32,000 nucleotides of DNA, taken from contig OZ246409.1 in assembly GCA_965231035.1 (NCBI GenBank), positions 301,101 through 333,100 of the forward strand. Reading direction: 5' to 3'. The notes under the pieces are model-generated. The model was not told where the DNA came from and did not search any database. It saw nothing but the letters and a program-made list of their open reading frames with translations. This document shows, piece after piece, positions 1-18,264 of the stretch. Source of the stretch: an uncultured Muribaculaceae bacterium (lineage in GTDB: Bacteria; Pseudomonadota; Alphaproteobacteria; Rs-D84). How positions within the stretch are numbered: position 1 is the first letter of the stretch; every line of letters starts with the position of its first letter. The position numbers and the translations under genes are program-made.

Positions 1-1265
1 CCACCACCAGTTCTGAAAATTGTCATCTGGCCATTTGGCATAAATCCAATATAGTCAGCAGATGAATAACCAGAATCCTTACCACCGACAACCTTGGCTA
101 ATAAATCGTCTATATCTCTTGAAAAAGAATTATTTATAACCGTTCCATATCCAGCCAAGTCGAACGAATTTAGTGCTGCTGAACTTGAATCTTCTTCGGT
201 CGAATCGTCCAATATTGAATCAGACTCTGACCCACGATTTATTTTATTATTATAATATTTGCTGGACATCATATTATTACTTGCAGATATCACGGCATTA
301 TTATTTGTTTTGCTCCATAATAATAATCTATCTTCAAGTGAAGTATCTTGTTTCGCATTTATACCATTCTTTGTTATTATCGCAACATTTGTTGGGCGAC
401 CACCCATAACAGAACCACCAGTCAAAGAACGACCTGAAAAACTTAGCGGTGCTTTTGATTCTGTGTTTCGCAATGTTCGCATACCCATATAACCACGTGC
501 CAGCGCAGAATATCCATGCATCATCAATAAATAATTTTGTTTATACACATGATTTGTCGTATCCGTACTGGTACCGGTCATCAATGCGAAATTATCTTTT
601 AAAATACCTGCGGTTGATGGGCTGTAATAATTCAAATTGTTTGTGTAATTCGCGGTTTCCGATGTCGCATTAGGCATAGCGGGACTGTAAGGTAATTGAA
701 AAGACGCAGTTCCACCACCAGGCGTAACATTTGTACAATCACATGTGCCATCTGCTTTACATATTCCAACACTGGTAATTGAACAACGACATTGTTCACC
801 CGAAACACATTTTGTATTATCTGTGCTGGTGGTATTACTATTTCCAGCAGATACAACATCCGTTAACATAAACAGTCCGCCAACAACAACGGCGGCCCCT
901 GCCGCCGCCAACGCTATGCTTTGGGCAGAAGACAGCCCGCTGAACAATCCACCAGATTCTTCTTTTGGTAATTTGTTTTTATATTTTTTAATCTGATAAT
1001 CACACTTCGAAGCGTCTGCACCGTACATTTGTAAAATCTGTGCGGCACGAATATCATTATTCATCAATGCTGTGCAAACAACCGACAAGCCAGTATTATC
1101 AACATAGTTTATATCCGCACCATTATTAACCAGTGCTTGAACCTGCTGAACATCACCATTCTTTGCTGCGGCCAGCAACTGAGCTGCAACCTTGAAATTA
1201 TCCACTGCAAAAGCGGAAAATGGAACAAAAATCAAAGAAAACAACAATAATCTTATGTACTTCAT
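1..1265 (-). CDS. exported ankyrin-repeat protein with Gly/Ala-rich hydrophobic segment and small Cys-rich patch (partial; C-terminus lies beyond window start)
   Basis: Absent from the ORF track because there is no stop inside the window. Hand translation of the minus strand from ATG 1265-1263 gives 421 sense codons with no stop. It reads MKYIRLLLFSLIFVPFSAFA-VDNFKVAAQLLAAAKNGDVQQVQALVNNGADINYVDNTGLSVVCTALMNNDIRAAQILQMYGADAS (two ANK-like repeats) ... SIALAAAGAAVVVGGLFML ... CVSGEQCRCSITSVGICKADGTCDC ... YIGFMPNGQMTIFRTGG. A purine run (GAGAGAG) lies a few nt upstream of the ATG. Confidence 0.75.
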   Translation of the reverse strand, partial: MKYIRLLLFSLIFVPFSAFAVDNFKVAAQLLAAAKNGDVQQVQALVNNGADINYVDNTGLSVVCTALMNNDIRAAQILQMYGADASKCDYQIKKYKNKLPKEESGGLFSGLSSAQSIALAAAGAAVVVGGLFMLTDVVSAGNSNTTSTDNTKCVSGEQCRCSITSVGICKADGTCDCTNVTPGGGTASFQLPYSPAMPNATSETANYTNNLNYYSPSTAGILKDNFALMTGTSTDTTNHVYKQNYLLMMHGYSALARGYMGMRTLRNTESKAPLSFSGRSLTGGSVMGGRPTNVAIITKNGINAKQDTSLEDRLLLWSKTNNNAVISASNNMMSSKYYNNKINRGSESDSILDDSTEEDSSSAALNSFDLAGYGTVINNSFSRDIDDLLAKVVGGKDSGYSSADYIGFMPNGQMTIFRTGG

Positions 1266-1330
1266 GAAAACTCTCTCTGCTAGAGAAAATTTTAACATAA
1301 AAATGTCAAATCTGTCCAGCGGAAAAAATG

Positions 1331-1603
1331 TTATCTTGTATTAAGTTTTTCAGATTGCAATTTTTTCAATATAATATCATCTGTGGTTTTATCCATATCA
1401 AAACCATCAAGCTTTTTTTCAAACTCTTGTTTTCCAAAATTTTTAATTTTATTTTTATCTTCCAACGACTTGTTAAGCAAATCTATTTTTGTTTTACTTA
1501 AATTTTCATCCAAGGCTTGCTTGACATTTAACAAAACAGATAATGCAAACAGAACCACAAAAGAATATTTACCAAAAGTTTTCAATTTCTTTTTATTATA
1601 CAT
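1331..1603 (-). CDS. small exported or membrane-anchored K/E-rich protein (90 aa), unknown function
   Basis: ORF track. N-terminus MYNKKKLKTFGKYSFVVLFALSVLLNVKQA resembles a signal peptide or anchor. The remainder is charged and coiled-coil-like. AAAGGAAGAG Shine-Dalgarno lies just upstream of the ATG. Co-directional with the 1..1265 gene, 65 nt upstream of it. Confidence 0.55.
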   Translation of the reverse strand: MYNKKKLKTFGKYSFVVLFALSVLLNVKQALDENLSKTKIDLLNKSLEDKNKIKNFGKQEFEKKLDGFDMDKTTDDIILKKLQSEKLNTR

Positions 1604-1727
1604 AAGACTCTTCCTTTGATTACTCTGCTATGTATAATAGACAAACACTATAACCGTCAAGCGTTTTTTCAATTTCAAGTCATTTTAAATATATTTTTGT
1701 TTTTCTCTTTTCTGGTGGGGTGTTTTT

Positions 1728-4796: not shown

Positions 4797-6164
4797 ATGA
4801 AGAAACTACTTTTTGTATTTTTATTTTTACTTCCTGTTACTGCTTTTGCAGATGCTTTTGACGACGCTGTGGCAAAATATGAGTCTGATGTCAAAAATGC
4901 AACAAATATATTGAATAGTAAAATCACACAAAATACAAATCTTGTACAACTGTCCACAGATCAAGTAAACGATGATATGAAATCAACTGTCAGAACAGCT
5001 AAAAAGAAATTTAACAAACAGTTAAGTTCCCAAGAAAAAGAAGATGAACAAAAATATCAAGAAAAACAACAAGAAGTAAGTGAACAAACAGATGTTTCAA
5101 ATTCCGCAAATTCATCAAATGTTACAAATCCTGATAAAATTGCCGAGCTTGAAGCCAATGCCAAGGCAATGAAAGATAAAGAAAACTCAACTGCAAATAA
5201 AATGCTGGGGGCGGCAGCCGTTGGCGCAACCGGAATTGGCGGCAGCCAATTGTTGCAAGGTCTGTCCGAAAAAAAATCAGACGATGCAGCCGAACGTGAT
5301 ATGAAAGCTTATCTGGCAACATTTAAATGTGACTATGGTCAGGGACAAAATGTTAACGGTGGCGATAAATCAATCACCCTGCCCGGCGGAAATGTTTTAA
5401 CATCTTATTACACAGAATATAAAACTCTGGCAGCTAATCTTAAAACTACGAAAACTGCTTTGGGATTAACACCTGGAATTGAATCTGAAACATTATTGGA
5501 TAAATCAACCGCAGGGCTTTATGACAATGAATCAACTGGCAAAAAATCTGGTGCTTTTGCCAGCGTATCTGATGCCTTGTCTGGGAATGCAGATGCTAAA
5601 GACGCTTGGAATGCCCAAAAATCCGAAGCATCTAAAAAGGTCACAACTGGTATTGTTGCCGCCGGCGTTGGTATTGTTGGTGGCGCAGTTGGAAATATGT
5701 TGATAAATAAAGATTCCACCAAGGAAAGTTCAGATGTAAATTCTGATGATAAAAAAACAAATGATACAAGTTCTTCTGTGACTTCTTCTGATAAAAGCAA
5801 TGAACAAAAAATATCTTCTGTTACAAATGATAATGTTTCTTTGGATAACACAGATAAAAAAACTAATACTTTTGAAGATTTAGACAAAAAATATAAAGAC
5901 GCAGCAATCAAATTCAAAGAAGCAGACGAATTATATAATAAATTAGCTAATGAAAGTATGAAAAACGGTGGTGTTGTTACTGAAGAATTAGAAGATGCAA
6001 GAATTGCGCGCGACCAAGCAGAGAAAGACCTTGAAACTGCAAAAAGTGAAACTGTTACAGCCAATTCATCTATGAAAGAAATTCAAACTGGAAATAATAC
6101 CTCTGATGATATCTCGAAACTATCTAATAATTCTTCTACTTTGTCATTGCGAGGAATGAAATGA
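4797..6164 (+). CDS. exported coiled-coil/low-complexity protein with two glycine-zipper-like segments (455 aa)
   Basis: ORF track. Signal-peptide-like MKKLLFVFLFLLPVTAFA. Gly-rich hydrophobic segments are MLGAAAVGATGIGGSQLL (nt 5202-5255) and TTGIVAAGVGIVGGAVGNMLI (nt 5643-5705). The last 7 codons and the stop lie inside repeat copy 6141-6166. Confidence 0.75.
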   Translation: MKKLLFVFLFLLPVTAFADAFDDAVAKYESDVKNATNILNSKITQNTNLVQLSTDQVNDDMKSTVRTAKKKFNKQLSSQEKEDEQKYQEKQQEVSEQTDVSNSANSSNVTNPDKIAELEANAKAMKDKENSTANKMLGAAAVGATGIGGSQLLQGLSEKKSDDAAERDMKAYLATFKCDYGQGQNVNGGDKSITLPGGNVLTSYYTEYKTLAANLKTTKTALGLTPGIESETLLDKSTAGLYDNESTGKKSGAFASVSDALSGNADAKDAWNAQKSEASKKVTTGIVAAGVGIVGGAVGNMLINKDSTKESSDVNSDDKKTNDTSSSVTSSDKSNEQKISSVTNDNVSLDNTDKKTNTFEDLDKKYKDAAIKFKEADELYNKLANESMKNGGVVTEELEDARIARDQAEKDLETAKSETVTANSSMKEIQTGNNTSDDISKLSNNSSTLSLRGMK

Positions 6165-6322
6165 TGTATTAACTGGATTGCCACGCTTCGCTCGCAATGA
6201 CAAATTGTTGGGGTTAGTTATAGTTCCAGTTTGTCATTGCGAGGAATAAAATGACGAAGCAATCCAGGTTGATAAAAGAAAAACATATTGACTGGATTGC
6301 CGTGCTTCGCTCGCAATGACAA
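6141..6322. repeat. cluster of four copies of a palindromic 31-37 nt repeat family, in alternating orientation
   Basis: 6141-6166 ttgtcattgcgaggaatgaaatgatg (truncated). 6173-6203 ctggattgccacgcttcgctcgcaatgacaa. 6231-6267 ttgtcattgcgaggaataaaatgacgaagcaatccag. 6292-6322 ctggattgccgtgcttcgctcgcaatgacaa. The termini ttgtcattgcgag/ctcgcaatgacaa and gcaatccag/ctggattgc are reverse complements. Confidence 0.85.
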
Positions 6323-6331
6323 ATCTAAATT

Positions 6332-6357
6332 AAAAACCGCCCATTTGGGCGGTTTTT
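6332..6357. terminator. bidirectional intrinsic terminator between convergent genes
   Basis: aaaaaccgcccatttgggcggttttt: a GC stem ccgccc/gggcgg flanked by an A-run and a T-run. It sits between the stop at 6164 (+) and the stop at 6373 (-). Confidence 0.8.
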
Positions 6358-6372
6358 AACTTTTATACCTTA

Positions 6373-8421
6373 TTATTGGCATGCGCCATAAGATACTGCA
6401 ACTGGATGATTATCTACGCAAGTGCTGCCAGAAACAACACATGCTGTATTTACCAATTGTGTATTGGTTGAATTAACCGGTTTATAATTCAGCTGTGCTG
6501 CTGCGCACTGGTTCAAATCTTTCAGTGTTGCACAAGCATTCTTCCACGAAGTACAATCTGTCGCAGTTGCTGTTGGCATAATTGTATCTGGCAAACGCAG
6601 GTTCCATTTGACATAGAAGTCTTTTAACGAACCAATGCTATAAGATTTACCAAAGTCAACCTTTTGCAATCCGTCACCAACACGACAGTTAATGTTGTTC
6701 TTTTCAACAAAAGATGTGATTGCTGTTGCCAATCCACCTGCGGCGGCACCAGCACCGGCACCAATTGCAGTTGACGCCAACATGTTTGAATCCTCACCCT
6801 GCAATATTGTCAACTGATTCATAACATTTCCCAGTTCTTTTACTTGTTTTCCAAATTCTTCACTATCAACGCAATTATTGTTATTCCCCGAACAATATGG
6901 TTTTATACCATTCTTTTTTGCAAGATTCAAGTTACTGAATGTCATGGCACATTTATCTGTCGATGTTATAACAGTATTATCATTAGAAAGTTTTTTTACC
7001 GTTATTTTAATACTTCTGGTTCCATCATCAGTCAGGTATTTTACCTTATCTTCTGTCAAACTATTATTCATTACTTCACGATCTTTATTATCCTTTGAAA
7101 CTTTGTCAAGCATTGCTTTACTAGTAGTTCCATCGAAAAGTATATCTTTTGCTGTTACATCTATATCTTCGGTATTAGTAATATTTATTGCTGAATTTGT
7201 TGTACCAGTTGTGCATGATTTCAATGCAACTTTTGCTGCTTGGTAATCACTGTAAAGTGTAACTATGGCTTCGCACTGATCGCCAATATATTCATTTACA
7301 ATAATCTGGCTTTCAGAATCCAAGAATTGATTTAAAACAGCGACCTTGCCAGTTGCACGCAATTCCTTATCCAATTCTTTTACCTGATCTTTGTCTTTGC
7401 AGTTAAAGTTACGTTGACCATGGCCGGCCAATGCACCGATACCTGCACCAACCAATGTACCACCACCAACACCAACGACTGATGTGGTCTTGGTCTTGGT
7501 CATCAAACCAAACCCAAACATATCTTTACCACAGTTAAAGCTGCTGCCTGCTGATTTCCAAACTTCGGCCGGTTGATCATTTCCAGCGGCACCAAATAAC
7601 CAACTGTTTTTGATTTGTGAATCTTTGTTGTACGCTGCAACACGAACCAAACATTCACCCTTGACCGCATCCCATCTGGCATAATGTCCACGTTGTGCAT
7701 CAACAGTACCATTATTATTAACCCTTACACCCTGAGGCATATCTTTGGTCAAAGATCCACCAGACTGACTGTTATAAGCACCAACAGTTTGGTTATATTC
7801 TTCTGTGACTTTTCCACCATTCGAAATCGCTGCAAAAGATGAACCATAAGTATTTTTATCCAACAACCAACATGTATTTTCTGCTTGGTTTGGTGTTAAT
7901 CCTGTTTTGCGCAGAACAAAAGAATAATATTCAGGTTGAATCTTGCGAGAGTTATAGTCCCACCAAAAATCAGAAGAAGTAGCATAAACATTTTTGCAAT
8001 TCTTACGAACGTCGCTGATACATTTATCCACCTGGGCATAACACAGACTCATTCCATTAAAGATAGAATTACGCAAATCTTCGTTGAACAAATCGTTTAA
8101 CCCACCAGGAAGTGCACCGTTGTTAATACAAGAAGTAACATCGTTGATGCAATTTTCAACTGTATATTCAGAATTTGCAACACCACCATCTGGACACTTG
8201 GAAACTGTTGTTCCTGTATTCGTTGTAGTATTACCAGTCGCATTGCCAGGAAGAATTGACATTGTTGGCATACGTTGCTGACCTGCTGTATAGGCTGCCC
8301 CACGAACCGGTGCAACATTATAACCCGCACGCCCTGTATCCGCTGCACCTGCAGAACCTAGAACAAAAACTGTACTTGCAGACACAATGGAAAACCCGAA
8401 TTTCTTTAATAAATTGTGCAT
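6373..8421 (-). CDS. exported cysteine-rich protein with two glycine-zipper-like segments (682 aa, 22 Cys by hand count)
   Basis: ORF track. Signal-peptide-like MHNLLKKFGFSIVSASTVFVLGSAGA. AAGGGAGAA Shine-Dalgarno upstream. C-x6-C pairs include CINDVTSC (nt 8128-8151). Gly-rich segments lie at nt 7417-7479 and 6706-6777. Confidence 0.85.
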   Translation of the reverse strand: MHNLLKKFGFSIVSASTVFVLGSAGAADTGRAGYNVAPVRGAAYTAGQQRMPTMSILPGNATGNTTTNTGTTVSKCPDGGVANSEYTVENCINDVTSCINNGALPGGLNDLFNEDLRNSIFNGMSLCYAQVDKCISDVRKNCKNVYATSSDFWWDYNSRKIQPEYYSFVLRKTGLTPNQAENTCWLLDKNTYGSSFAAISNGGKVTEEYNQTVGAYNSQSGGSLTKDMPQGVRVNNNGTVDAQRGHYARWDAVKGECLVRVAAYNKDSQIKNSWLFGAAGNDQPAEVWKSAGSSFNCGKDMFGFGLMTKTKTTSVVGVGGGTLVGAGIGALAGHGQRNFNCKDKDQVKELDKELRATGKVAVLNQFLDSESQIIVNEYIGDQCEAIVTLYSDYQAAKVALKSCTTGTTNSAINITNTEDIDVTAKDILFDGTTSKAMLDKVSKDNKDREVMNNSLTEDKVKYLTDDGTRSIKITVKKLSNDNTVITSTDKCAMTFSNLNLAKKNGIKPYCSGNNNNCVDSEEFGKQVKELGNVMNQLTILQGEDSNMLASTAIGAGAGAAAGGLATAITSFVEKNNINCRVGDGLQKVDFGKSYSIGSLKDFYVKWNLRLPDTIMPTATATDCTSWKNACATLKDLNQCAAAQLNYKPVNSTNTQLVNTACVVSGSTCVDNHPVAVSYGACQ

Positions 8422-9692: not shown

Positions 9693-12470
9693 TTACATCT
9701 GTACACCATTTGTAACTGTTGTTGGATCTTTGAATTTAGTACAAAAAACACCTTCAAATTTTTTCGTCACTCTTTTTCTTCCACCACCTATATGCAATAT
9801 ACCACCTCCACCTTTGCATCCACCACCACCAAAAAAACTTAACCCACCATAACTACAAGTATTAGATTTTGAATAAACATCTTTAAATGTATCACACATA
9901 GTCGTAACTGTAGTTATATTGCAAGTATTAGATGAAGATGAATATACAGAAGTTAAAGAAACCTTTCCAATCATATTACCCTTAGTATCCGTTTGAGTCC
10001 ATTCAGAATGACCACTGGATGCTACAGAAATTATATCCGACATCTTTGCACCACTTATAATATATTTCATTGAGTAAATATCATTACCAGACACACCTTT
10101 ACTTGATGTATCATCAAACAAATCAGCATAAGATGTAGCTTCATATGCTGTGCAATTCCCGTCAGAATCATAAGTTTTACAAGATTTAGGTTCTGATGCC
10201 ATAGCTGCACACATTGCTGTTTTTAAATCATCATTTTGATTTTCTAATGCTTCTGATACCATTTTATCATACTTTTTATTATAGTTTTTATTTGCTTTTT
10301 CCAAGCCAGAATTCATTATAGCCAATATAGAAGAATCTAATAAATTTGGATATCTTGCCGTAGATGTTGTTGATACTGCATTTGTTCCATCACCACGAAT
10401 TTGTGTCATATCACGACCCTCAATACACATCTTTATTTTTGCATCCTGAGACAAGACAGCTATCTTTTGATTCATCTTATTTGCCGTGGATTGTAAAGAT
10501 GAAACAACGCGTGAGGTCAAAGAATCTGAAGATAATAAATGATTTTTGTAATCATTTATATCAATCTCGTACTTACCAAATTTTACATCTGTATCACTAC
10601 TTTTTGTCCTTTCAATTTTCACATTTCCATAAGAAACTAATCCTTCAATTACATAATCTCCATTATTATCCTTGTAACTGGATAAACTTTCTGTACCAAT
10701 AGAATCATCATCATCGAATGCTGTGCAATTATCAGTATCACCACATATTTCTATCATTTTTTCAGACACAATTTTTTGACATTTATCCAGCAGCGAATTA
10801 TCTATATTAAGGTAAATTCCTTGTACTATATTATCTATATCATTAATATTATTTAAAACGCCATCTTTTTGACATCCTACCAGTTTATCAATTGGACATA
10901 GTTTCTTTATATCACTCAAATCTAAACCTATACAATTATGAAAATCTTCGCCGCAAGTATTTTCATTAGTGAAACATTCTTTAACTTCGGTTGTACAAGA
11001 ATCAACACGCATTGCTGATAATTTTGCATAGACATAATCCAGAATCAAAGGTTCTGCTGAAACACAAGGATCGATTTGCACTTTGCATAAAGAACGAACT
11101 GTTTCTGGACGTGATAAACACATATCATATGAACCATCCGGATCATTTGGATCAATTGTATCTTTACATGCTTTTTGGAAACATGAGGATATATTAGAAA
11201 TACAATTTGTCCGTAAATTAGATTCAGCCAATAGTTCAGCTGTTTTTAAAGTTGGTGCAACATCACGCAAAAATGAATTCCAAACCTGGTCTTTTACTGC
11301 AACACAAGAATTTGTTATATTTTCACACATTGGTTTTTTTGATTCCAGCGCATCCATAGTGGATGCAGCAACTGAAATTTTTGTATTTGATCCGGTTATA
11401 TCAACCATCTTCATAGAAGACTTAGAACTGCTGGACATCTTGGCATTTTCAGCCGCAGCAATTCCAACACAGCCTGTAAAATCACTTTTGCAACCTGCTG
11501 TATCAGTCATGCATTTTTCAAAAGCCAAAGTACACTGACCTAGGTCATATTTATTTGCTGTACGTAATGAATCCAAAGCGGCATCACGCAGAGCCTTTTG
11601 TGCAGTTGCTAATTTCTGTGTGCTGGAATTTTTTTGCTTAGTTAAATCATTTTCATACGCCGCACAATCAGATTTTATATTCTGAGAATAACCAAGTTGT
11701 ATCATTGCCAAATCTTCTGAACATTCTGGAATTTGTGCTGAACACAATTCAGCAACAGAACTATACAAGTCATTACCTGTTTTACCTTCAACAGGGCTTA
11801 CCTCTCTTTGTGCAAATATATCTTGATCCATTGTATCAGAATCCGTCTGATTCCACTGACTTAAATCCAACGTTTTTTTCTGGGTTACATTACTAGTTGT
11901 TAAACTATTTGCTGTATTGTTTGCAGATGCGATTACTTTATCTGCATCAGAACCCATTTCAATTTTTTCAACACCCTCGGTTGCCATTTTATAACTTTGA
12001 GCATCCAAAGCCTGAATCTGAACCTGAACCTTATCCAGCTCAGCCTTGCGATCACTGCATAAACAACGACCGCCACTGGTGTTTTCAATCATACAAAAAG
12101 AATCCATACATCCATAATATTTTTGCTTACAAGCTTCATCCACTATTATATTCTTGTTCACACCAGAAATTGCAGTACCTGAATTTATAACTTTTTGCAT
12201 AGTCCCAGCACGTGCAGAAACAACTGGCGCGGACATTGGAGTTGCCGCAGATCTGGCAGATATTGTTCGAACGTTTGAAGATGTTGCACTGGGCATTACA
12301 GCTGAACGTGCAGAAGTTGGTCTGACAGCAGCACGTGCCGACACGGGTGTTTGTGCAGTGCTTTCAGATGGTTGTGATACAGATTGACCACGCCTTTGCA
12401 CAGGAACTTCAGCATTTGCACACACAACAAAGGTTGCCATAAAAATAGAAAAAATTGCAATTTTTCTCAT
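9693..12470 (-). CDS. large exported cysteine-rich protein (925 aa, 38 Cys in predicted mature part by hand count), unknown family
   Basis: ORF track. Signal-peptide-like MRKIAIFSIFMATFVVCANA. GGAG Shine-Dalgarno about 8 nt upstream. Four SAR[AS][AG] repeats follow the signal peptide. Two units of C-x6-C-x6-C-x6-C lie at nt 11469-11534 and 10932-10997. The C-terminus is Gly-rich. Confidence 0.85.
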   Translation of the reverse strand: MRKIAIFSIFMATFVVCANAEVPVQRRGQSVSQPSESTAQTPVSARAAVRPTSARSAVMPSATSSNVRTISARSAATPMSAPVVSARAGTMQKVINSGTAISGVNKNIIVDEACKQKYYGCMDSFCMIENTSGGRCLCSDRKAELDKVQVQIQALDAQSYKMATEGVEKIEMGSDADKVIASANNTANSLTTSNVTQKKTLDLSQWNQTDSDTMDQDIFAQREVSPVEGKTGNDLYSSVAELCSAQIPECSEDLAMIQLGYSQNIKSDCAAYENDLTKQKNSSTQKLATAQKALRDAALDSLRTANKYDLGQCTLAFEKCMTDTAGCKSDFTGCVGIAAAENAKMSSSSKSSMKMVDITGSNTKISVAASTMDALESKKPMCENITNSCVAVKDQVWNSFLRDVAPTLKTAELLAESNLRTNCISNISSCFQKACKDTIDPNDPDGSYDMCLSRPETVRSLCKVQIDPCVSAEPLILDYVYAKLSAMRVDSCTTEVKECFTNENTCGEDFHNCIGLDLSDIKKLCPIDKLVGCQKDGVLNNINDIDNIVQGIYLNIDNSLLDKCQKIVSEKMIEICGDTDNCTAFDDDDSIGTESLSSYKDNNGDYVIEGLVSYGNVKIERTKSSDTDVKFGKYEIDINDYKNHLLSSDSLTSRVVSSLQSTANKMNQKIAVLSQDAKIKMCIEGRDMTQIRGDGTNAVSTTSTARYPNLLDSSILAIMNSGLEKANKNYNKKYDKMVSEALENQNDDLKTAMCAAMASEPKSCKTYDSDGNCTAYEATSYADLFDDTSSKGVSGNDIYSMKYIISGAKMSDIISVASSGHSEWTQTDTKGNMIGKVSLTSVYSSSSNTCNITTVTTMCDTFKDVYSKSNTCSYGGLSFFGGGGCKGGGGILHIGGGRKRVTKKFEGVFCTKFKDPTTVTNGVQM

Positions 12471-12555: not shown

Positions 12556-12584
12556 AAAAAAATCCGCACGAATGCGGATTTTTT
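12556..12584. terminator. intrinsic terminator ending the ribosomal alpha operon (after rplQ)
   Basis: aaaaaaatccgcacgaatgcggatttttt: stem atccgca/tgcggat flanked by A and T runs, 19 nt downstream of the rplQ stop. Confidence 0.8.
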
Positions 12585-13362: not shown

Positions 13363-14391
13363 TTATTTGTATGGGTCTTCGTATTTCTTGGACAACTCAG
13401 AAATATTTTCTGGTGGCCAACCTGGTACTGTTATACCCAATCCCAAACCCATTGCTTCTAACTGAGCTTTGATTTCGTTCAAAGATTTGCGACCAAAGTT
13501 TGGTGTTTTCAGCATATCTGCTTCGGTCTTTTGAACCAATTCGCCCAACCAGTTAATTTTATCATTCTTCAAGCAATTGTTTGCACGAACAGACAATTCT
13601 AATTCGTCTACATGCTTTAACAATTTTGGATCAAATGGTAATGCGTCTTTTGCTTTTTCTTCTTCTTTGACTGCGCTGATTTGTGCAGGATCTTCAAAGT
13701 TAATAAATACGACCAATTGATCTGTCAAAATACGTGAGGCATATGCAATTGCATCTTCTGGAGAAACACTGCCGTTTGTTTTAACAGTCATTTCCAATTT
13801 ATCAAAGTCTGTTGACTGACCAACGCGTGTTTCAGAAACTTGGAAAGCAACATTCAAAATCGGGGAAAAGATAGAATCAACAGGGATAACACCTAATGGC
13901 AAATCTTCGGCATGTGCGTTTGCAGCAACATACCCACGACCTGTACCTAATGTGATTTCCATATCCAAAGATGCACCTTTGTCCAGGTTGCAAATTTCAA
14001 CATCTTTGTTCATGACTTCAATGCCACCACTTGTTTCAATCATACCTGCTGTAACAACTGCTGGACCTTTTACTTTTAATAAAGCTTTGTGTTGACCTTC
14101 GGTCAGTGCTTTAAAATAAACACCTTTTAAATTTAATATAATGTCTGTTACATCTTCGCGTATGCCAGACAAGCTGGAAAATTCGTGTTGAACACCATCA
14201 ATTTTAATATACAACGGTGCGCATCCCTGTAAAGAAGACAGCAGAACGCGACGCAATGCGGTGCCCAAAGTCAGACCAAATCCCTTTTCCAATGGATCTG
14301 CGATTAATGTTGCAATATTTGGATTATTTTCATCGATTTTGATATTCAGCTTTTTTGGCTTAATCAAAGTCATCCAGTTTTTTTCGATCAT
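13363..14391 (-). CDS. rpoA: DNA-directed RNA polymerase subunit alpha
   Basis: 342 aa. The C-terminal domain motif ELELSVRANNCLKNDKINWLGELV is typical of the alpha-CTD. Position is between rpsK and rplQ. Confidence 0.96.
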   Translation of the reverse strand: MIEKNWMTLIKPKKLNIKIDENNPNIATLIADPLEKGFGLTLGTALRRVLLSSLQGCAPLYIKIDGVQHEFSSLSGIREDVTDIILNLKGVYFKALTEGQHKALLKVKGPAVVTAGMIETSGGIEVMNKDVEICNLDKGASLDMEITLGTGRGYVAANAHAEDLPLGVIPVDSIFSPILNVAFQVSETRVGQSTDFDKLEMTVKTNGSVSPEDAIAYASRILTDQLVVFINFEDPAQISAVKEEEKAKDALPFDPKLLKHVDELELSVRANNCLKNDKINWLGELVQKTEADMLKTPNFGRKSLNEIKAQLEAMGLGLGITVPGWPPENISELSKKYEDPYK

Positions 14392-14440
14392 TTTGATTCC
14401 TTGTGGTTTAGTTTATTATTTTCACCTTAAAGGCCCGGGG

Positions 14441-14469
14441 ATTTTAACCTGTGTTTGCCAAATTGTCAA
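14441..14469 (-). promoter_or_regulatory. candidate sigma70 promoter for rpoA: TTGACA-17 nt-TAAAAT (minus strand)
   Basis: Reverse complement: TTGACA (14469-14464), 17-nt spacer, TAAAAT (14446-14441). About 50 nt upstream of ATG 14391, with an AAGGAA SD in the leader. Confidence 0.5.
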
Positions 14470-14528
14470 GAAAAACCTTGCTTTTTAGTAATTTTATGTA
14501 AAGATTCGTCTGAAACAGGAGGTGTAAT

Positions 14529-15101
14529 ATGAAACAACTATCTGATTCTTACTTTAAAACTGTACAAGATTTTGTACTAAAAAATCTTCAAAACCGTAAT
14601 GTTATCGTTAGTTTTGGAAAATCACACACTGATTTTGGGTATTCTGACAAAAACTTCTTTAAATTGGAAGCATTGAAAACTTTGTTTGATAAGGCCAATT
14701 ATCATATTTCTAATTTGGGCGCAAAAAAACTTGACGGTACCCAAAAAGATGTTTTTTATGATTTACAAGAATTCACATCTTTCCCTTTTGAGGATTCGGA
14801 ATCTAATAAGAAACTTTTTGATGTGCTCAAAGAATCAAATAACGGTTTTGTTCACTCGACTTATATTGAAAAGATTTTTATAAAATTTCCTGTTTTTGAT
14901 TCTGGCAAAGTAAGACAGGTACAAATTTCTGCTTTTCCAGAAGTAAGTGATTTTATAAAAGATCTCAGCTTTGAGCTATTAGCTTCAAAAATTAAAAAAA
15001 TGAAATTATTAGATGCAGTTATTACTTCAAATAATCCAAAAAGAATTCCCCGCAGAAAAACTGCAACGTTAAGTAGTGAAACACCTCAAAATCAAAGATA
15101 A
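14529..15101 (+). CDS. hypothetical protein (190 aa), orphan, inserted in the alpha operon on the opposite strand
   Basis: ORF track. A strong AGGAGGTG Shine-Dalgarno lies 5 nt upstream of the ATG. Followed immediately by a terminator. I recognise no motif. Confidence 0.6.
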   Translation: MKQLSDSYFKTVQDFVLKNLQNRNVIVSFGKSHTDFGYSDKNFFKLEALKTLFDKANYHISNLGAKKLDGTQKDVFYDLQEFTSFPFEDSESNKKLFDVLKESNNGFVHSTYIEKIFIKFPVFDSGKVRQVQISAFPEVSDFIKDLSFELLASKIKKMKLLDAVITSNNPKRIPRRKTATLSSETPQNQR

Positions 15102-15125
15102 AAAACCGCCAACTGGCGGTTTTTT
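15101..15125. terminator. bidirectional intrinsic terminator between convergent genes
   Basis: aaaaaccgccaactggcggttttt, lying between the stop at 15101 (+) and the stop at 15133 (-). Confidence 0.8.
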
Positions 15126-15132
15126 ATAATAT

Positions 15133-16002
15133 TTATAAAAACCATTCTAATTTTTTCACAAGTTTTTTAACTTCTTTTTCTTTGATATCTCCCAAAGATG
15201 TTGAAACAATTGCCCAACAAACACAGTTTACCCTATCTACCAAAGAGGTTTTTATTACGATTTCAATATCAACATGTATCCCAGATTTCAATTCATAAGC
15301 GTGTAAGATTTCTTTCAGAAAATCCTTGTATTTTGGGTTATAAAGACTTTGAAAATCATACGCTCTATTACCAAAATTAGCATCTGCCCAGTCAAAAACA
15401 CCTGTTAGGTGTAAATCTTTATTTATTAAACTATTTCCACCACTGAAATCACGATGTAATAGGACAATATCATCAGAATTAAAAATATCTGCATTTTCAT
15501 ATTTATTGTATATATTACTTATTTCTTTATCTGATAAAAACGGCTGTAAATTTTTATTTACATAATCAAAAGATTCCAATTTAAATTTTCTTATTTTTAA
15601 TAAGCCTGGAAATTCTTTTTCTATTTTATTTTTATCTATTTTGTGAACAGAATTAAAAAAACTTGCACAATCATTTATAAAATTTTTTTGCAAATCATAT
15701 GGTTTATTATTTATACCTTCAACGTCCCAACCATTACCAAGTAACATTTTATGAGTTGTATATGGATATTCAACATTATCTACTATTATAATTTTTGGAA
15801 TTTGAACTTCAATATCATTACGAACAAAATCTGTTATTTTTTGTTCTTTTTTATAATCATCCATATTCTTTTTAGGAAATCTTAATATATTATCATCGAC
15901 AATAAATGCTATTGAATCCCAGCCTTCTCCAACAAAGTTTATTTTTGAACTTGAAAACTTATCTTTTAAAAAATCTTCTAAAATATCTTTATTTATTACC
16001 AT
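15133..16002 (-). CDS. aminoglycoside/antibiotic phosphotransferase (APH)-fold kinase family protein
   Basis: 289 aa. Glycine-loop-like VGEGWDSIAFIV. Conserved Lys context LRFPKK. Catalytic loop LLHRDFSGGNSL (HxDxxxxN, nt 15433-15456). Activation segment GVFDWADANFGNRAYDF (nt 15352-15396). This is the pattern of the APH/choline-kinase superfamily. Confidence 0.8.
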   Translation of the reverse strand: MVINKDILEDFLKDKFSSSKINFVGEGWDSIAFIVDDNILRFPKKNMDDYKKEQKITDFVRNDIEVQIPKIIIVDNVEYPYTTHKMLLGNGWDVEGINNKPYDLQKNFINDCASFFNSVHKIDKNKIEKEFPGLLKIRKFKLESFDYVNKNLQPFLSDKEISNIYNKYENADIFNSDDIVLLHRDFSGGNSLINKDLHLTGVFDWADANFGNRAYDFQSLYNPKYKDFLKEILHAYELKSGIHVDIEIVIKTSLVDRVNCVCWAIVSTSLGDIKEKEVKKLVKKLEWFL

Positions 16003-16025
16003 TAATTGACCTTTTTACAATCAAG

Positions 16026-16034
16026 ATTATATCA
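16026..16034 (-). promoter_or_regulatory. candidate extended -10 promoter (TGATATAAT on minus strand) for the APH-fold kinase gene
   Basis: The reverse complement of 16026-16034 is TGATATAAT. It lies directly downstream of the rpsK terminator and 23 nt upstream of ATG 16002, with AAAGG in between. Confidence 0.4.
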
Positions 16035-16035
16035 T

Positions 16036-16062
16036 AAAAAACCCGCCAATTGGCGGGTTTTT
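16036..16062. terminator. intrinsic terminator after rpsK
   Basis: aaaaaacccgccaattggcgggttttt, 7 nt downstream of the rpsK stop. Confidence 0.8.
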
Positions 16063-16068
16063 ATTTTA

Positions 16069-16452
16069 TTAAACGCGGCGGACTTTCTTTGGTCTGCAAC
16101 CATTATGTGGAATACGTGTTGTATCTGTGATGCTTTGAACAATCAAACCAGCATTTGACAAACCACGAACAGCAGATTCACGACCCTGACCAATACCACG
16201 CATCAGAACATCAACTGTTTTCATTCCCATTTCAGCAACTTTCTTACCAATGCTGTCTGCAACAACAGTAGCTGCATATGGTGTTGATTTCTTGGCGCCC
16301 TTGAAATTATTTGCGCCAGCGGTTGCCCAAGTCAATACACTGCCTGCTTGGTCTGTGATTGTAATTCTGGTGTTGTTATTAGTTGCAACTACATGGGCAA
16401 TACCATGAGATACTTTTTTAATAACTTTCTTTTTTGTTTTTGCAATTGCCAT
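16069..16452 (-). CDS. rpsK: 30S ribosomal protein S11
   Basis: C-terminus ...DTTRIPHNGCRPKKVRRV is typical of S11. Follows rpsM. Confidence 0.97.
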   Translation of the reverse strand: MAIAKTKKKVIKKVSHGIAHVVATNNNTRITITDQAGSVLTWATAGANNFKGAKKSTPYAATVVADSIGKKVAEMGMKTVDVLMRGIGQGRESAVRGLSNAGLIVQSITDTTRIPHNGCRPKKVRRV

Positions 16453-16476: not shown

Positions 16477-16854
16477 TTATTTACCCTTGCTTGCACTGCC
16501 AGAAACGACAACACGTTTACCTTTTCTGGTACGTGCGTTTGTCTGTGTACGTTGACCACGAACTGGCAAACGGTTACGATGACGAATACCACGATAAGTT
16601 TTAAGATCTTGTAAACGTTTTATGTTCATTTGAACTTCACGGCGAACATCACCTTCTACTTTGAAATTTTCTTCAATGTAATTAGAAATGTTCACAACTT
16701 CTGTGTCGGTCAAATCTTTTGCGCGCAAACTGTCTTTGATTTTCAAAGCCTTGCAAATTTGGGCCGATTTTTTTGGTCCAATGCCATAGATATATCTTAA
16801 CGCAATTTCAACGCGTTTTTCTGATGGAATGTTCACACCTGCTATACGTGCCAT
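16477..16854 (-). CDS. rpsM: 30S ribosomal protein S13
   Basis: [26 protein letters not shown] is a typical S13 N-terminus. Confidence 0.97.
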
Positions 16855-16900
16855 ATTATATTTTCCTTTTTATTTTTTACCACTATCGTTTTGCTGCATT

Positions 16901-16911
16901 ATTTTATATCA
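16901..16911 (-). promoter_or_regulatory. possible -10 region (TGATATAAAAT on minus strand) upstream of rpsM
   Basis: Lies in the 93-nt secY-rpsM spacer, about 45 nt upstream of the rpsM ATG. Weak call. Confidence 0.25.
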
Positions 16912-16947
16912 AATACAACAAAAGTCAAACTTGTTTTTACCTTTTTA

Positions 16948-18264
16948 TTAACCCAAGACGCGGAAACGCCCCTTCTTTTTCTTGATAACATTGCTGTATT
17001 GCTTTGCAACAAGATATGACTGAACCTGGTTCATAGTATCCAATACAACGCCCGCAACGATCAAAACACTTGTTCCACCAATCATCAGTGGCATACCGAG
17101 ACGAGTGTTTAATATTATAGGCAAAACACAAACGACTATCAGATATAAAACACCGATTACCGTCGTTCTGGAAACAACACCATCCAAATGATGAGTTGTT
17201 TGTTCGCCTGGACGAACCCCCGGAATATAACCACCTGCATTTTTAAGATTGTTACTTGTTTCTTCAGAGTTGAAAACAACCGCTGTTTGGAAAAATGCAA
17301 AGAAAGCAATTAACAAAGTAAATACCCCAAGATATGTCCAAGTTCCATAAGTTAAAAATCCAATAATATTCTGAACTATTAAATTTTCACTTTGTGCAAA
17401 ACGTTGAATAAATGCTGGCAACATCATAATACTGGATGCAAAAACAGGTCCCATAACGCCAGACATATTTATCTTTATAGGAAGATAAGAGGCATTAGTA
17501 TTTGCAACACCATTCGCCATAACTTGACGTGGATATAAAATTTGGATACGACGTTGTGCCTGTTCAACGAATGCTATCAATGCGACTATACCGACAATAA
17601 AAACAATTATTAAACCAATCATCGCAGGTGACATCTGACCAACGGAACCAAAAGACAACATCTTTGCAATACCGTTCGGAATTTGTGCAACTATTCCAGC
17701 AAAGATTAATAACGAAGAACCCTGTCCGATTCCGCGTGATGTTATTTGTTCTGCTAACCACATAACGAAAACTGTTCCGCCAACTAACGCAATAACCGCT
17801 GAAAGTTCAAATATGAATCCTGGATTAACAACAGCGTAAACACCATTTACTGGTGCCATTGATTCCAAACCACGAACAATCGCCCAACCTTGGATAACTG
17901 CCAATAAAACTGCCAAATATCTGGTATATTGGTTGATTCTTATACGACCTGCTTCGCCTTCTTTGCGTAATTCACTCATTGATTTACTGGTTGCAGATAA
18001 TAATTGAATAACAATAGAAGCAGATATATATGGAAAAATGTTCAAAGCTAAAATAGACATACGTGACAATGAACCACCGCTGAACATATCAAACATTCCC
18101 ATCATTCCGTTATCACTGTTGAACAAATGTAAAACCGCGGAAGCATTTACACCAGGCAATGGGATAAAAGAACCAATACGATAAACAATTAACGCACCAA
18201 GTGTAAACAAGATGCGCTTTTGCAAATCTGATAAATTCTTAAAAAAGTCTTTTATAAACTTCAT
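16948..18264 (-). CDS. secY: preprotein translocase subunit SecY
   Basis: 438 aa polytopic membrane protein. N-terminus ...RILFTLGALIVYRIGSFIPLPGVN is typical of SecY. Position after rplO. Confidence 0.96.
   Translation of the reverse strand: MKFIKDFFKNLSDLQKRILFTLGALIVYRIGSFIPLPGVNASAVLHLFNSDNGMMGMFDMFSGGSLSRMSILALNIFPYISASIVIQLLSATSKSMSELRKEGEAGRIRINQYTRYLAVLLAVIQGWAIVRGLESMAPVNGVYAVVNPGFIFELSAVIALVGGTVFVMWLAEQITSRGIGQGSSLLIFAGIVAQIPNGIAKMLSFGSVGQMSPAMIGLIIVFIVGIVALIAFVEQAQRRIQILYPRQVMANGVANTNASYLPIKINMSGVMGPVFASSIMMLPAFIQRFAQSENLIVQNIIGFLTYGTWTYLGVFTLLIAFFAFFQTAVVFNSEETSNNLKNAGGYIPGVRPGEQTTHHLDGVVSRTTVIGVLYLIVVCVLPIILNTRLGMPLMIGGTSVLIVAGVVLDTMNQVQSYLVAKQYSNVIKKKKGRFRVLG

Follow-up and report, generated by a model that had tools for sequence, protein, structure and literature searches.

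A kinase gene of the aminoglycoside phosphotransferase fold and an orphan gene at a variable rpsK-rpoA junction in a reduced-genome gut alphaproteobacterium

The S10/spc/alpha super-operon of ribosomal protein genes is interrupted by 1.68 kb of sequence in the stretch of DNA considered here, a window of 32,000 nucleotides (contig OZ246409.1, positions 301,101 to 333,100) in which the minus-strand order is secY, rpsM, rpsK, the interruption, rpoA, and rplQ. The interruption lies between rpsK, the gene of ribosomal protein S11 (16069-16452; Pfam Ribosomal_S11, E=2e-37), and rpoA, the gene of the RNA polymerase alpha subunit (13363-14391; Pfam RNA_pol_A_bac, RNA_pol_L, and RNA_pol_A_CTD), both on the minus strand. 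Two genes occupy it, as an earlier note made from the sequence alone had described and as the open reading frame coordinates and Pfam matches bear out: a minus-strand gene for a kinase of 289 residues with the aminoglycoside phosphotransferase (APH) fold (15133-16002), and a plus-strand orphan gene of 190 residues (14529-15101) convergent with it. The rpsK-rpoA junction is a clade-wide insertion hotspot, with different content in the relatives and an empty site in the outgroup. On balance, we favour the view that the kinase and the orphan are a horizontally acquired accessory cassette lodged in a permissive hotspot, and not a functional part of the ribosomal operon.

The organism is a reduced-genome gut alphaproteobacterium near Candidatus Enterousia (order Rs-D84). 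A protein search with rpoA retrieved 80 species-level genomes at 74-93% identity, nearly all of them labelled uncultured Alphaproteobacteria or Candidatus Enterousia and mostly from animal guts. Enterousia of this order are gut bacteria whose genomes measure 0.75-1.0 Mb and whose metabolism is very limited; they have reduced genomes, depend on partners, and are without glucokinase or standard transporters (PMC12306168). The contig on which the kinase of the window is recorded has 848,746 bp.

The identity of rpsK in related loci is 92-100%. Its distance to rpoA is 28 nt in L085, the locus taken as outgroup for this comparison; a few species have 113-208 nt, and the longest gap is 4283 nt. Many loci have no rpsK within 6 kb of rpoA, and in four it is inverted downstream of rpoA. 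Cargo was defined as open reading frames of at least 100 residues between rpsK and rpoA or, for loci with no rpsK, within 4.5 kb on the upstream side of rpoA. The cargo upstream of rpoA in about 80 species falls into 73 unrelated clusters, which include alpha/beta hydrolases, a NAD epimerase, an outer-membrane beta-barrel protein, an NT5C nucleotidase, glycosyltransferases, and Cys-rich proteins of 600-1000 residues, some with ephrin-receptor-like repeats. One species has rpsB-tsf before rpoA, and most of the cargo has no Pfam match. Because rpsK and rpoA are contiguous in the outgroup (28 nt apart), the kinase and the orphan are an insertion. A small secreted protein of 100-140 residues is among the cargo in 33 species or loci (L006-L084), in one or the other orientation, with a signal peptide, several Cys residues, and the conserved motif PVRVKTHTEVIDHYQVYQPVxxYxPAGTY; it has no Pfam match, and no copy of it was found in the window.

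The kinase is confined to a very narrow group. Among 5.8 billion proteins only three other close homologues were recovered (84, 66, and 65% identity), and all three occur in the same arrangement, rpsK, kinase, convergent orphan, and rpoA. In a neighbour-joining tree of rpoA the window forms one clade with L001, L002, and L006, and the sister lineage represented by L006 has a gene for a NAD-dependent epimerase at the junction in place of the kinase and the orphan. Neither of the two genes was found at any of the 80 GTDB species loci of the clade, by the kinase profile run against GTDB genomes or by a hidden Markov model (HMM) search of the cargo open reading frames, and the pair is thus distributed over one small subclade only. 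The earlier note had set against its own proposal a kinase of a housekeeping clade with conserved synteny in all relatives; the distribution found is not of that kind.

Gene turnover at the junction continues at the level of strains. The rpoA of L001 is 100% identical to that of the window, yet L001 has an extra gene of 208 residues exactly at the rpoA promoter (L001 7470-8260), and has lost the second of the two hairpins described below, so that the locus is still changing. The added gene has a weak PHROG match (phrog_16532) and is bracketed by two TTGACAAT boxes; therefore, the new gene and rpoA would both keep a -35 element. An open reading frame of a different, distant APH-family protein was noticed about 5 kb upstream of rpoA in L058 (approximately 800-1700, plus strand; E=2e-13 to the subfamily profile).

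Integration hotspots of chromosomes, where variable 'islets' lie between conserved core genes, are a known kind of locus (reportedly treated, for example, by Oliveira et al. 2017, Nat Commun). The junction resembles them in several aspects, which include two core genes that flank content differing among close relatives, cargo of atypical composition and mostly of no assigned function, and strain-level turnover as seen in the extra gene of L001. It differs in its location inside what most bacteria have as a ribosomal protein and RNA polymerase operon, in its occurrence in genomes below 1 Mb, in having no integrase, tRNA, or insertion sequence element, and in serving also as an inversion breakpoint in some loci.

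In E. coli the alpha operon is rpsM-rpsK-rpsD-rpoA-rplQ, and in most Alphaproteobacteria it is rpsM-rpsK-rpoA-rplQ. The window keeps the classical gene order, rpsM and rpsK followed by rpoA and rplQ, whereas rpsK and rpoA are parted by a terminator, the foreign genes, and a promoter with a leader; in place of a co-transcribed rpsM-rpsK-rpoA-rplQ unit, two terminator hairpins and a promoter are predicted within the 1.68-kb spacer. The earlier note held that the insert splits the alpha operon and makes rpoA restart. This part of the proposal had to be given up, since the break between terminator and promoter is found also in species with gaps of 113-138 nt, and hence it was not the kinase that split the operon. 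A terminator-like hairpin is present within 90 nt 3' of rpsK in 48 of 57 related loci, and a promoter of the form TTGAC[AT]-16/18-TAnAAT lies 75-110 nt before rpoA in 78 of 84. The promoter occurs also where there is no cargo at all, as in L062 (113-nt gap) and L042 (138-nt gap), and outgroup L085 has neither the rpsK terminator nor the rpoA promoter. As the promoter and the terminator are clade-wide, they are older than the insert, and rpoA-rplQ is predicted to be an autonomous unit throughout the clade that predates the kinase.

The individual signals of the window are consistent with this arrangement. The hairpin AAAAACCCGCCAATTGGCGGGTTTTT that follows rpsK (16037-16062, minus strand), a palindromic intrinsic terminator found by the terminator scan, closes the rpsM-rpsK unit and contains the first copy of CCGCCAnnTGGCGG, of which a pair flanks the kinase gene. 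Its T-run is abutted by the predicted extended -10 element of the kinase gene, TGATATAAT (16034..16026, minus strand), read from the sequence about 24 nt 5' of the ATG. The rpsK hairpin CCGCCAnTTGGCGG, the T-run, and TGnTATAAT are identical in five related sequences; the 'n' varies (A, T, or C), and TG and TATAAT are invariant. It is inferred that TGATATAAT acts as the promoter of the kinase gene. The second copy of CCGCCAnnTGGCGG is in the hairpin ATAAAAAACCGCCAACTGGCGGTTTTTTAT (15098-15127), called by the same scan as a terminator for both strands and common to the convergent kinase and orphan genes. Two copies of CCGCCAnnTGGCGG in the 32-kb window compare with 0.01 expected. The second hairpin is present in L002, L003, L004, and L005; L001 has lost it by deletion, and its kinase and orphan genes overlap. 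As the CCGCC...GGCGG stem is the usual rpsK terminator in several other species too, the second copy may be a duplicate that arose when the kinase was inserted.

The orphan is preceded by a Shine-Dalgarno sequence, AGGAGG (14517-14522, plus strand), 6 nt before its ATG. The separate rpoA-rplQ unit opens with the rpoA promoter TTGACA-17-TAAAAT (14469..14441, minus strand), which agrees with the consensus at 11 of 12 positions and is preserved as TTGACA-17-TA[AG]AAT in front of rpoA in the close relatives of the window. All of these elements had been named in the earlier note and were found again, and those for which it gave coordinates lie there or a few bases away. Terminator-like sites in the region number 9, compared with 2.3 +/- 1.6 in shuffled sequences.

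The rpoA leader holds a further conserved element, the motif GAAAATAATAAACTAA (14408-14423, minus strand), which is enclosed by a 3-bp stem, GGY...RCC, with weak covariation of the closing pairs (GC, GU, and AU). Of 90 loci, 82 have a single exact copy of the 16-mer GAAAATRATAAACTAA, placed some 20-30 nt 5' of the rpoA start, and the outgroup L085 is the only locus that has rpoA but not the 16-mer. The window has one exact match, and three matches with at most 2 mismatches against 0.21 expected. No Rfam family matches the leader in a search of the region, which returned sub-threshold matches only, keyed on the terminator hairpins, plus Alpha_RBS at rpsM. In the Enterousia / Rs-D84 clade, GAAAATRATAAACTAA is a candidate for a leader element that regulates rpoA-rplQ in cis.

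The kinase has the features of an intact enzyme. The Pfam APH match (PF01636, E=2e-15, 57.6 bits against a cut-off of 23.2) covers residues 21-236, and the motifs quoted in the earlier note, VGEGWDSIAF, LRFPK, HRDFSGGN, and DWADANFGNRAYD, were all located in the translation. The predicted key residues are K44, E53, H183, D185, N190, and D204; the catalytic loop HRDFSGGN comprises residues 183-190, and the metal-binding D204 lies in GVFDW, the equivalent of DFG. H183, D185, N190, and D204 are invariant in 36 members of the subfamily, and E53, H183, D185, and D204 are common also to the macrolide kinase (Mph) and APH(2'') references. An AlphaFold2 model (pLDDT 96, pTM 0.91) has the bilobal kinase fold. 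Judged by these residues, the protein would have everything that is needed for catalysis in an active ATP/GTP-dependent O-phosphotransferase. The ratio of nonsynonymous to synonymous substitution rates (dN/dS) is 0.19-0.37 for the kinase, which shares 66% identity between the window and L002, and 0.18-0.26 for the orphan; hence, both are taken as real genes.

The nearest characterised relatives of the kinase are enzymes that phosphorylate ribosome-targeting drugs, Mph(C/E/M) and APH(2''), and to this extent the earlier note was right about the fold and its kinship. Mph enzymes catalyse the GTP-dependent phosphorylation of the 2'-OH of macrolide desosamine, and APH(2'') enzymes phosphorylate the 2''-OH of 4,6-disubstituted aminoglycosides. 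Among the NCBIfam resistance models, which score 16-49 bits against cut-offs of 475-650 and thus about tenfold below them, the best are Mph(E)/(G) (49.1 bits, cut-off 500), MphC (47.3, cut-off 550), and APH_2pp_I_a_f_h (42.4, cut-off 475), followed by other APH(2'') models (25-32, cut-offs 600-625). A profile search of the PDB likewise gave APH(2'')-Ia (4ork) at 48 bits and Mph at 45 bits. In Foldseek the 50 best PDB matches are all APH(2'') with probability 1.00, the best being APH(2'')-IVa, -Ia, -IIa, and -IIIa (TM-score 0.65-0.76, 19-22% identity). Similarly, a tblastn search of 72,556 plasmids matched only the genes of Mph(C), MphM, and APH(2'')-Ia, at 21-24% identity, with Mph(C) as the best (E=8e-8).

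These relatives are distant, and the kinase belongs to a separate clade. Word-indexed protein searches gave very few matches, and it was the exhaustive profile search of 1.84 billion representative proteins that revealed the subfamily, in 50 clusters (E<1e-30) of which the best share 36-45% identity with the kinase. The few members with names are called 'aminoglycoside phosphotransferase family protein [Alphaproteobacteria bacterium]', and several are on the JGI contigs Ga0123353-57, the series of an alphaproteobacterial metagenome-assembled genome taken, from its isolate name, to come from termite gut. A phylogenetic placement, as the earlier note had proposed, was run as a neighbour-joining tree with four Mph enzymes and APH(2'')-Ia as references. 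MphA, MphC, MphE, and MphM form one clade in it, APH(2'')-Ia stands in a second with the homologues P0105 and P0112, and the group of the window falls inside a third, large, unnamed clade, outside both Mph and APH(2''). As far as its sequence tells, the kinase is best placed in a clade that has no characterised members and is kin to both Mph and APH(2''), and it should be filed under neither.

The comparison with the two enzyme groups bears on the possible substrate. The kinase shares with APH(2'') the bilobal eukaryotic-like kinase fold, a length of about 290-300 residues, the G-loop (GxGxxS), the H-x-D catalytic base, and the Mg-binding Asp, whereas the identity is only 19-24%. Its catalytic loop ends in Asn, and that of APH(2'')-Ia ends in His, as do the HGDLxxGH loops of all four Mph references. 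The identity to Mph is 16-24%, compared with 33-51% among the Mph enzymes themselves. The C-lobe resembles Mph in the elements 'DW..A', 'D/R-A-x-D-F', and '..AYE..(S)G', and looks more Mph-like than APH(2'')-like, although the kinase is without about 14 residues of the C-terminal helical region of Mph and its C-terminal helix differs. With a net charge of -5 (pI 5.8), the kinase is far less acidic than the kinase domain of APH(2'')-Ia (-26, pI 4.55) or the Mph enzymes (-12 to -14). The acidic loop LLEDSEEE of APH(2'')-Ia, which presumably binds the polycationic aminoglycoside substrate, aligns with LYNPKYKD in the kinase. With low confidence, these comparisons would make a neutral or hydrophobic substrate, macrolide-like or another xenobiotic, likelier than a polycationic aminoglycoside.

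The kinase gene was probably acquired horizontally. It has the lowest GC content of the window (25.1%, and 14.5% at third codon positions, GC3), where the other genes have 31.7-42.9% (GC3 20.6-33.1%) and the orphan 29.3%, and in the loci of more distant homologues the kinase gene is likewise usually 4-13 GC points below its surroundings, as in L087-L090 and L097-L100. Mph genes and the relatives of the kinase are both found in mobile genetic contexts. For example, the gene of homologue P0007 adjoins those of a phage terminase and a large serine recombinase, P0028 has an FtsK/SpoIIIE gene on one side and resolvase/TnpV genes on the other, and P0005 is near a Lambda_Bor gene. Others are in ordinary chromosomal contexts, such as P0010, whose gene follows exbB and exbD and precedes that of an EamA transporter, and P0006, divergent from rplU-rpmA-obg. 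The homologues are not tied to the site, since in the loci examined none of the distant ones is at the rpsK-rpoA junction, and none is accompanied by the orphan. A metagenome scan with a profile of a 10-sequence alignment found eight loci, of which only L096, from the same contig as L004, is at rpsK-rpoA.

Recombination has acted within the gene as well. Compared between the window and L001, the kinase gene is a mosaic: its 5' third, coding for the N-lobe, has a synonymous divergence (dS) of 0.38, and the remainder of the gene has 0.13. The identity between window positions 15133-15520 and L001 positions 6001-6400 is 70-88%, and it is 92-100% over the rest of the gene and the orphan; in this third the divergence between the window and L001 is as large as that of either from L002. 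The mosaic points to allelic recombination between strains that are otherwise nearly identical.

The orphan offers fewer clues. It has no match in Pfam, NCBIfam, or PADLOC, the only PHROGs match is insignificant (E=0.023), and Foldseek returned nothing with E<1. The protein is predicted to be mostly alpha-helical in a poor AlphaFold2 model (pLDDT 60), and inspection by eye gave neither a signal peptide nor a membrane segment. Only two protein clusters represent it among 5.8 billion proteins, all readable loci that carry it are rpsK-rpoA junctions, and the copy of L002 shares 47% identity with that of the window. The small secreted junction protein of the 33 loci ('cluster 0') was tried as a homologue of the orphan and rejected, as the hhalign probability was 0.1% and the HMM search of the cargo open reading frames gave nothing. 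The idea that the pair is a defence system was also dropped, with no PADLOC matches.

The reading favoured here, an accessory cassette in a permissive hotspot, would imply the following course of events. In the Candidatus Enterousia / Rs-D84 lineage an ancestral contiguous rpsK-rpoA would have become two transcription units, rpsM-rpsK ending at an intrinsic terminator and rpoA-rplQ starting at its own near-consensus promoter and leader. The non-essential spacer between them could accept DNA without polar effects, and the conserved flanking genes may serve as recombination anchors through which cargo is exchanged by homologous recombination. Different species would then fill the spacer with different cargo, and the subclade of the window would hold the kinase and the orphan. 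The kinase would be transcribed from its own extended -10, together with any read-through of the rpsK terminator, up to the shared hairpin, and its product would most likely phosphorylate a small molecule of the gut environment at a hydroxyl group.

Several observations weigh against this reading. The junction was searched for an integrase, a transposase, a tRNA, and a target-site duplication and gave none of them, and hence the mechanism of insertion can only be inferred; the whole window is without a tRNA, 30 cargo representatives contain no integrase or transposase domain, and the search for flanking direct or inverted repeats as integration scars gave only the similar pair of hairpins around the kinase. 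The promoters and terminators are predicted signals. Taken as a class, promoter-like sites show no enrichment over shuffled sequences (20 against 17.4), and therefore both promoter calls draw on conservation. Part of the low GC content could be due to low expression, and hence weak selection, in a genome that is AT-rich. The neighbour-joining tree of the kinases is without bootstrap values and its deep branches are long, and the argument on the substrate uses only net charge and one loop. In addition, the nearest characterised relatives all act on drugs that target the ribosome, and the position of homologue P0006 next to rplU-rpmA may indicate a link to the ribosome.

Such a link lies at the centre of the proposal that the kinase is a resistance or self-protection enzyme against a ribosome-targeting antibiotic, with a position in the super-operon that couples its expression to ribosome synthesis. 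The closest characterised relatives in sequence and fold, Mph and APH(2''), agree with this, as do the intact catalytic residues, the homologues beside recombinase, phage, and transfer genes, where resistance genes are often found, and the C-lobe motif DWADANFGNRAYDF...AYE..SG, which resembles the Mph pattern DWxEA..xDxxxDF...xYxxxGG. However, the identity of 16-24% and scores about tenfold below every NCBIfam resistance cut-off are far from any known resistance enzyme, the kinase stands in a clade apart, its catalytic loop has Asn in place of the His of the compared Mph and APH(2'')-Ia enzymes, and the acidity of aminoglycoside kinases is missing. The coupling itself is opposed by the kinase's own promoter and the terminator upstream of it, which argue against a tight connection to ribosomal-protein expression. 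The earlier note had thought the residence among ribosomal genes notable for function; because the relatives, about 80 species, hold dozens of unrelated genes at the same junction, the location is uninformative in this respect, and no tie to the ribosome is needed to explain it. A role in resistance or self-protection is thus possible by fold-level kinship, and, together with the proposed coupling, we consider it unlikely. A related and more far-reaching idea, to which we would also give little weight, is that with this kinase a new class of O-phosphotransferases for xenobiotics or antibiotics first comes to notice, sister to Mph and APH(2''), marked by the canonical Asn of the catalytic loop and spread over about 50 clusters at 50% identity (profile E<1e-30), whose members appear to move among gut bacteria. 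The kinase would then belong to an unrecognised reservoir of resistance, and would sit in a lineage-wide gene-capture site that the split of the alpha operon in reduced genomes had made.

A nutritional role would place the kinase elsewhere in cell physiology, as a salvage enzyme that phosphorylates a scavenged metabolite, for example an amino sugar in the manner of AmgK, NahK, or MtnK-type kinases, and that is kept for nutrition in a genome of about 0.85 Mb lacking many pathways. The APH family holds many metabolite kinases, with a weak match to AmgK (E=0.002), the kinase is under purifying selection, the homologue P0010 has an ordinary chromosomal neighbourhood, and the reduced Enterousia genomes are partner-dependent (PMC12306168), which would suit such a function. 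But a gene found in none of the sampled species of the clade is not core metabolism, the similarity to metabolite kinases is far weaker than that to Mph or APH(2''), no pathway genes are in the neighbourhood, the composition looks foreign, and some relatives are by mobile-element genes, so that salvage is improbable. It is more doubtful still that the two genes are a module acquired as a unit, in which the orphan would be a protein substrate or regulator of the kinase, or the two would form a toxin/immunity or defence-like pair. Wherever both can be seen, the orphan occurs only beside the kinase (in the window, L001, L002, L004, and an ENA contig of 1.5 kb), and both genes are under purifying selection and low in GC. 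Nevertheless, they are convergent and not co-transcribed, distant homologues of the kinase never carry the orphan, PADLOC has no matches, and the orphan evolves much faster (47% against 66% identity for the kinase); their co-occurrence is, moreover, confounded by shared ancestry within one small subclade.

The remaining genes around the junction are mostly those of the ribosomal super-operon. On the rpoA side, rplQ, the gene of ribosomal protein L17 (12603-13145, minus strand), corresponds to orthologues in L001 and L002 to which PF01196 was assigned, and a terminator-like hairpin called by the terminator scan lies 3' of it (12557-12584). On the other side of the interruption, rpsM is at 16477-16854 and secY at 16948-18264, both on the minus strand. 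In Alphaproteobacteria the usual order is secY-adk-rpsM; here secY is directly followed by rpsM (16855-16947 between them, and likewise in L001, L002, and L004), with no adk, map, infA, or rpmJ in between. There is no rpsD in the operon of the window. E. coli has an S4-binding leader at the start of rpsM, and in the window the Rfam family Alpha_RBS (RF00140) matches below threshold at the rpsM start (16822-16927, minus strand; 30.6 bits against a gathering score of 38, E=2.6e-4).

Downstream of rplQ, the window encodes a protein of 925 residues (9693-12470, minus strand) with a signal-peptide-like N-terminus, 39 Cys residues, and no Pfam match. It shares 37-47% identity with proteins encoded immediately 5' of rpoA in L014, L073, L076, L078, and L079. 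In L073, L076, and L078 rpsM-rpsK is inverted, and in L014 and L079 it was not found within the locus. The position of these relatives and the inverted rpsM-rpsK suggest rearrangements with a breakpoint at the rpsK/rpoA junction.

The findings imply that genomes below 1 Mb keep a highly active site of gene turnover in the middle of an operon that is elsewhere among the most conserved in bacteria, and that this would be possible because the terminator, the dedicated promoter, and the leader made rpoA-rplQ autonomous. They also advise caution, as 'residence in the ribosomal operon' is no guide to the function of a gene. If the kinase does modify an antibiotic, it would represent a new class of resistance enzymes that current antimicrobial-resistance databases miss, every NCBIfam and antimicrobial-resistance model scoring it about tenfold below threshold; some relatives of the kinase adjoin phage or transfer genes in animal and termite gut communities. 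The junction further provides a handle on how reduced-genome gut symbionts gain lineage-specific proteins, mostly secreted and Cys-rich.

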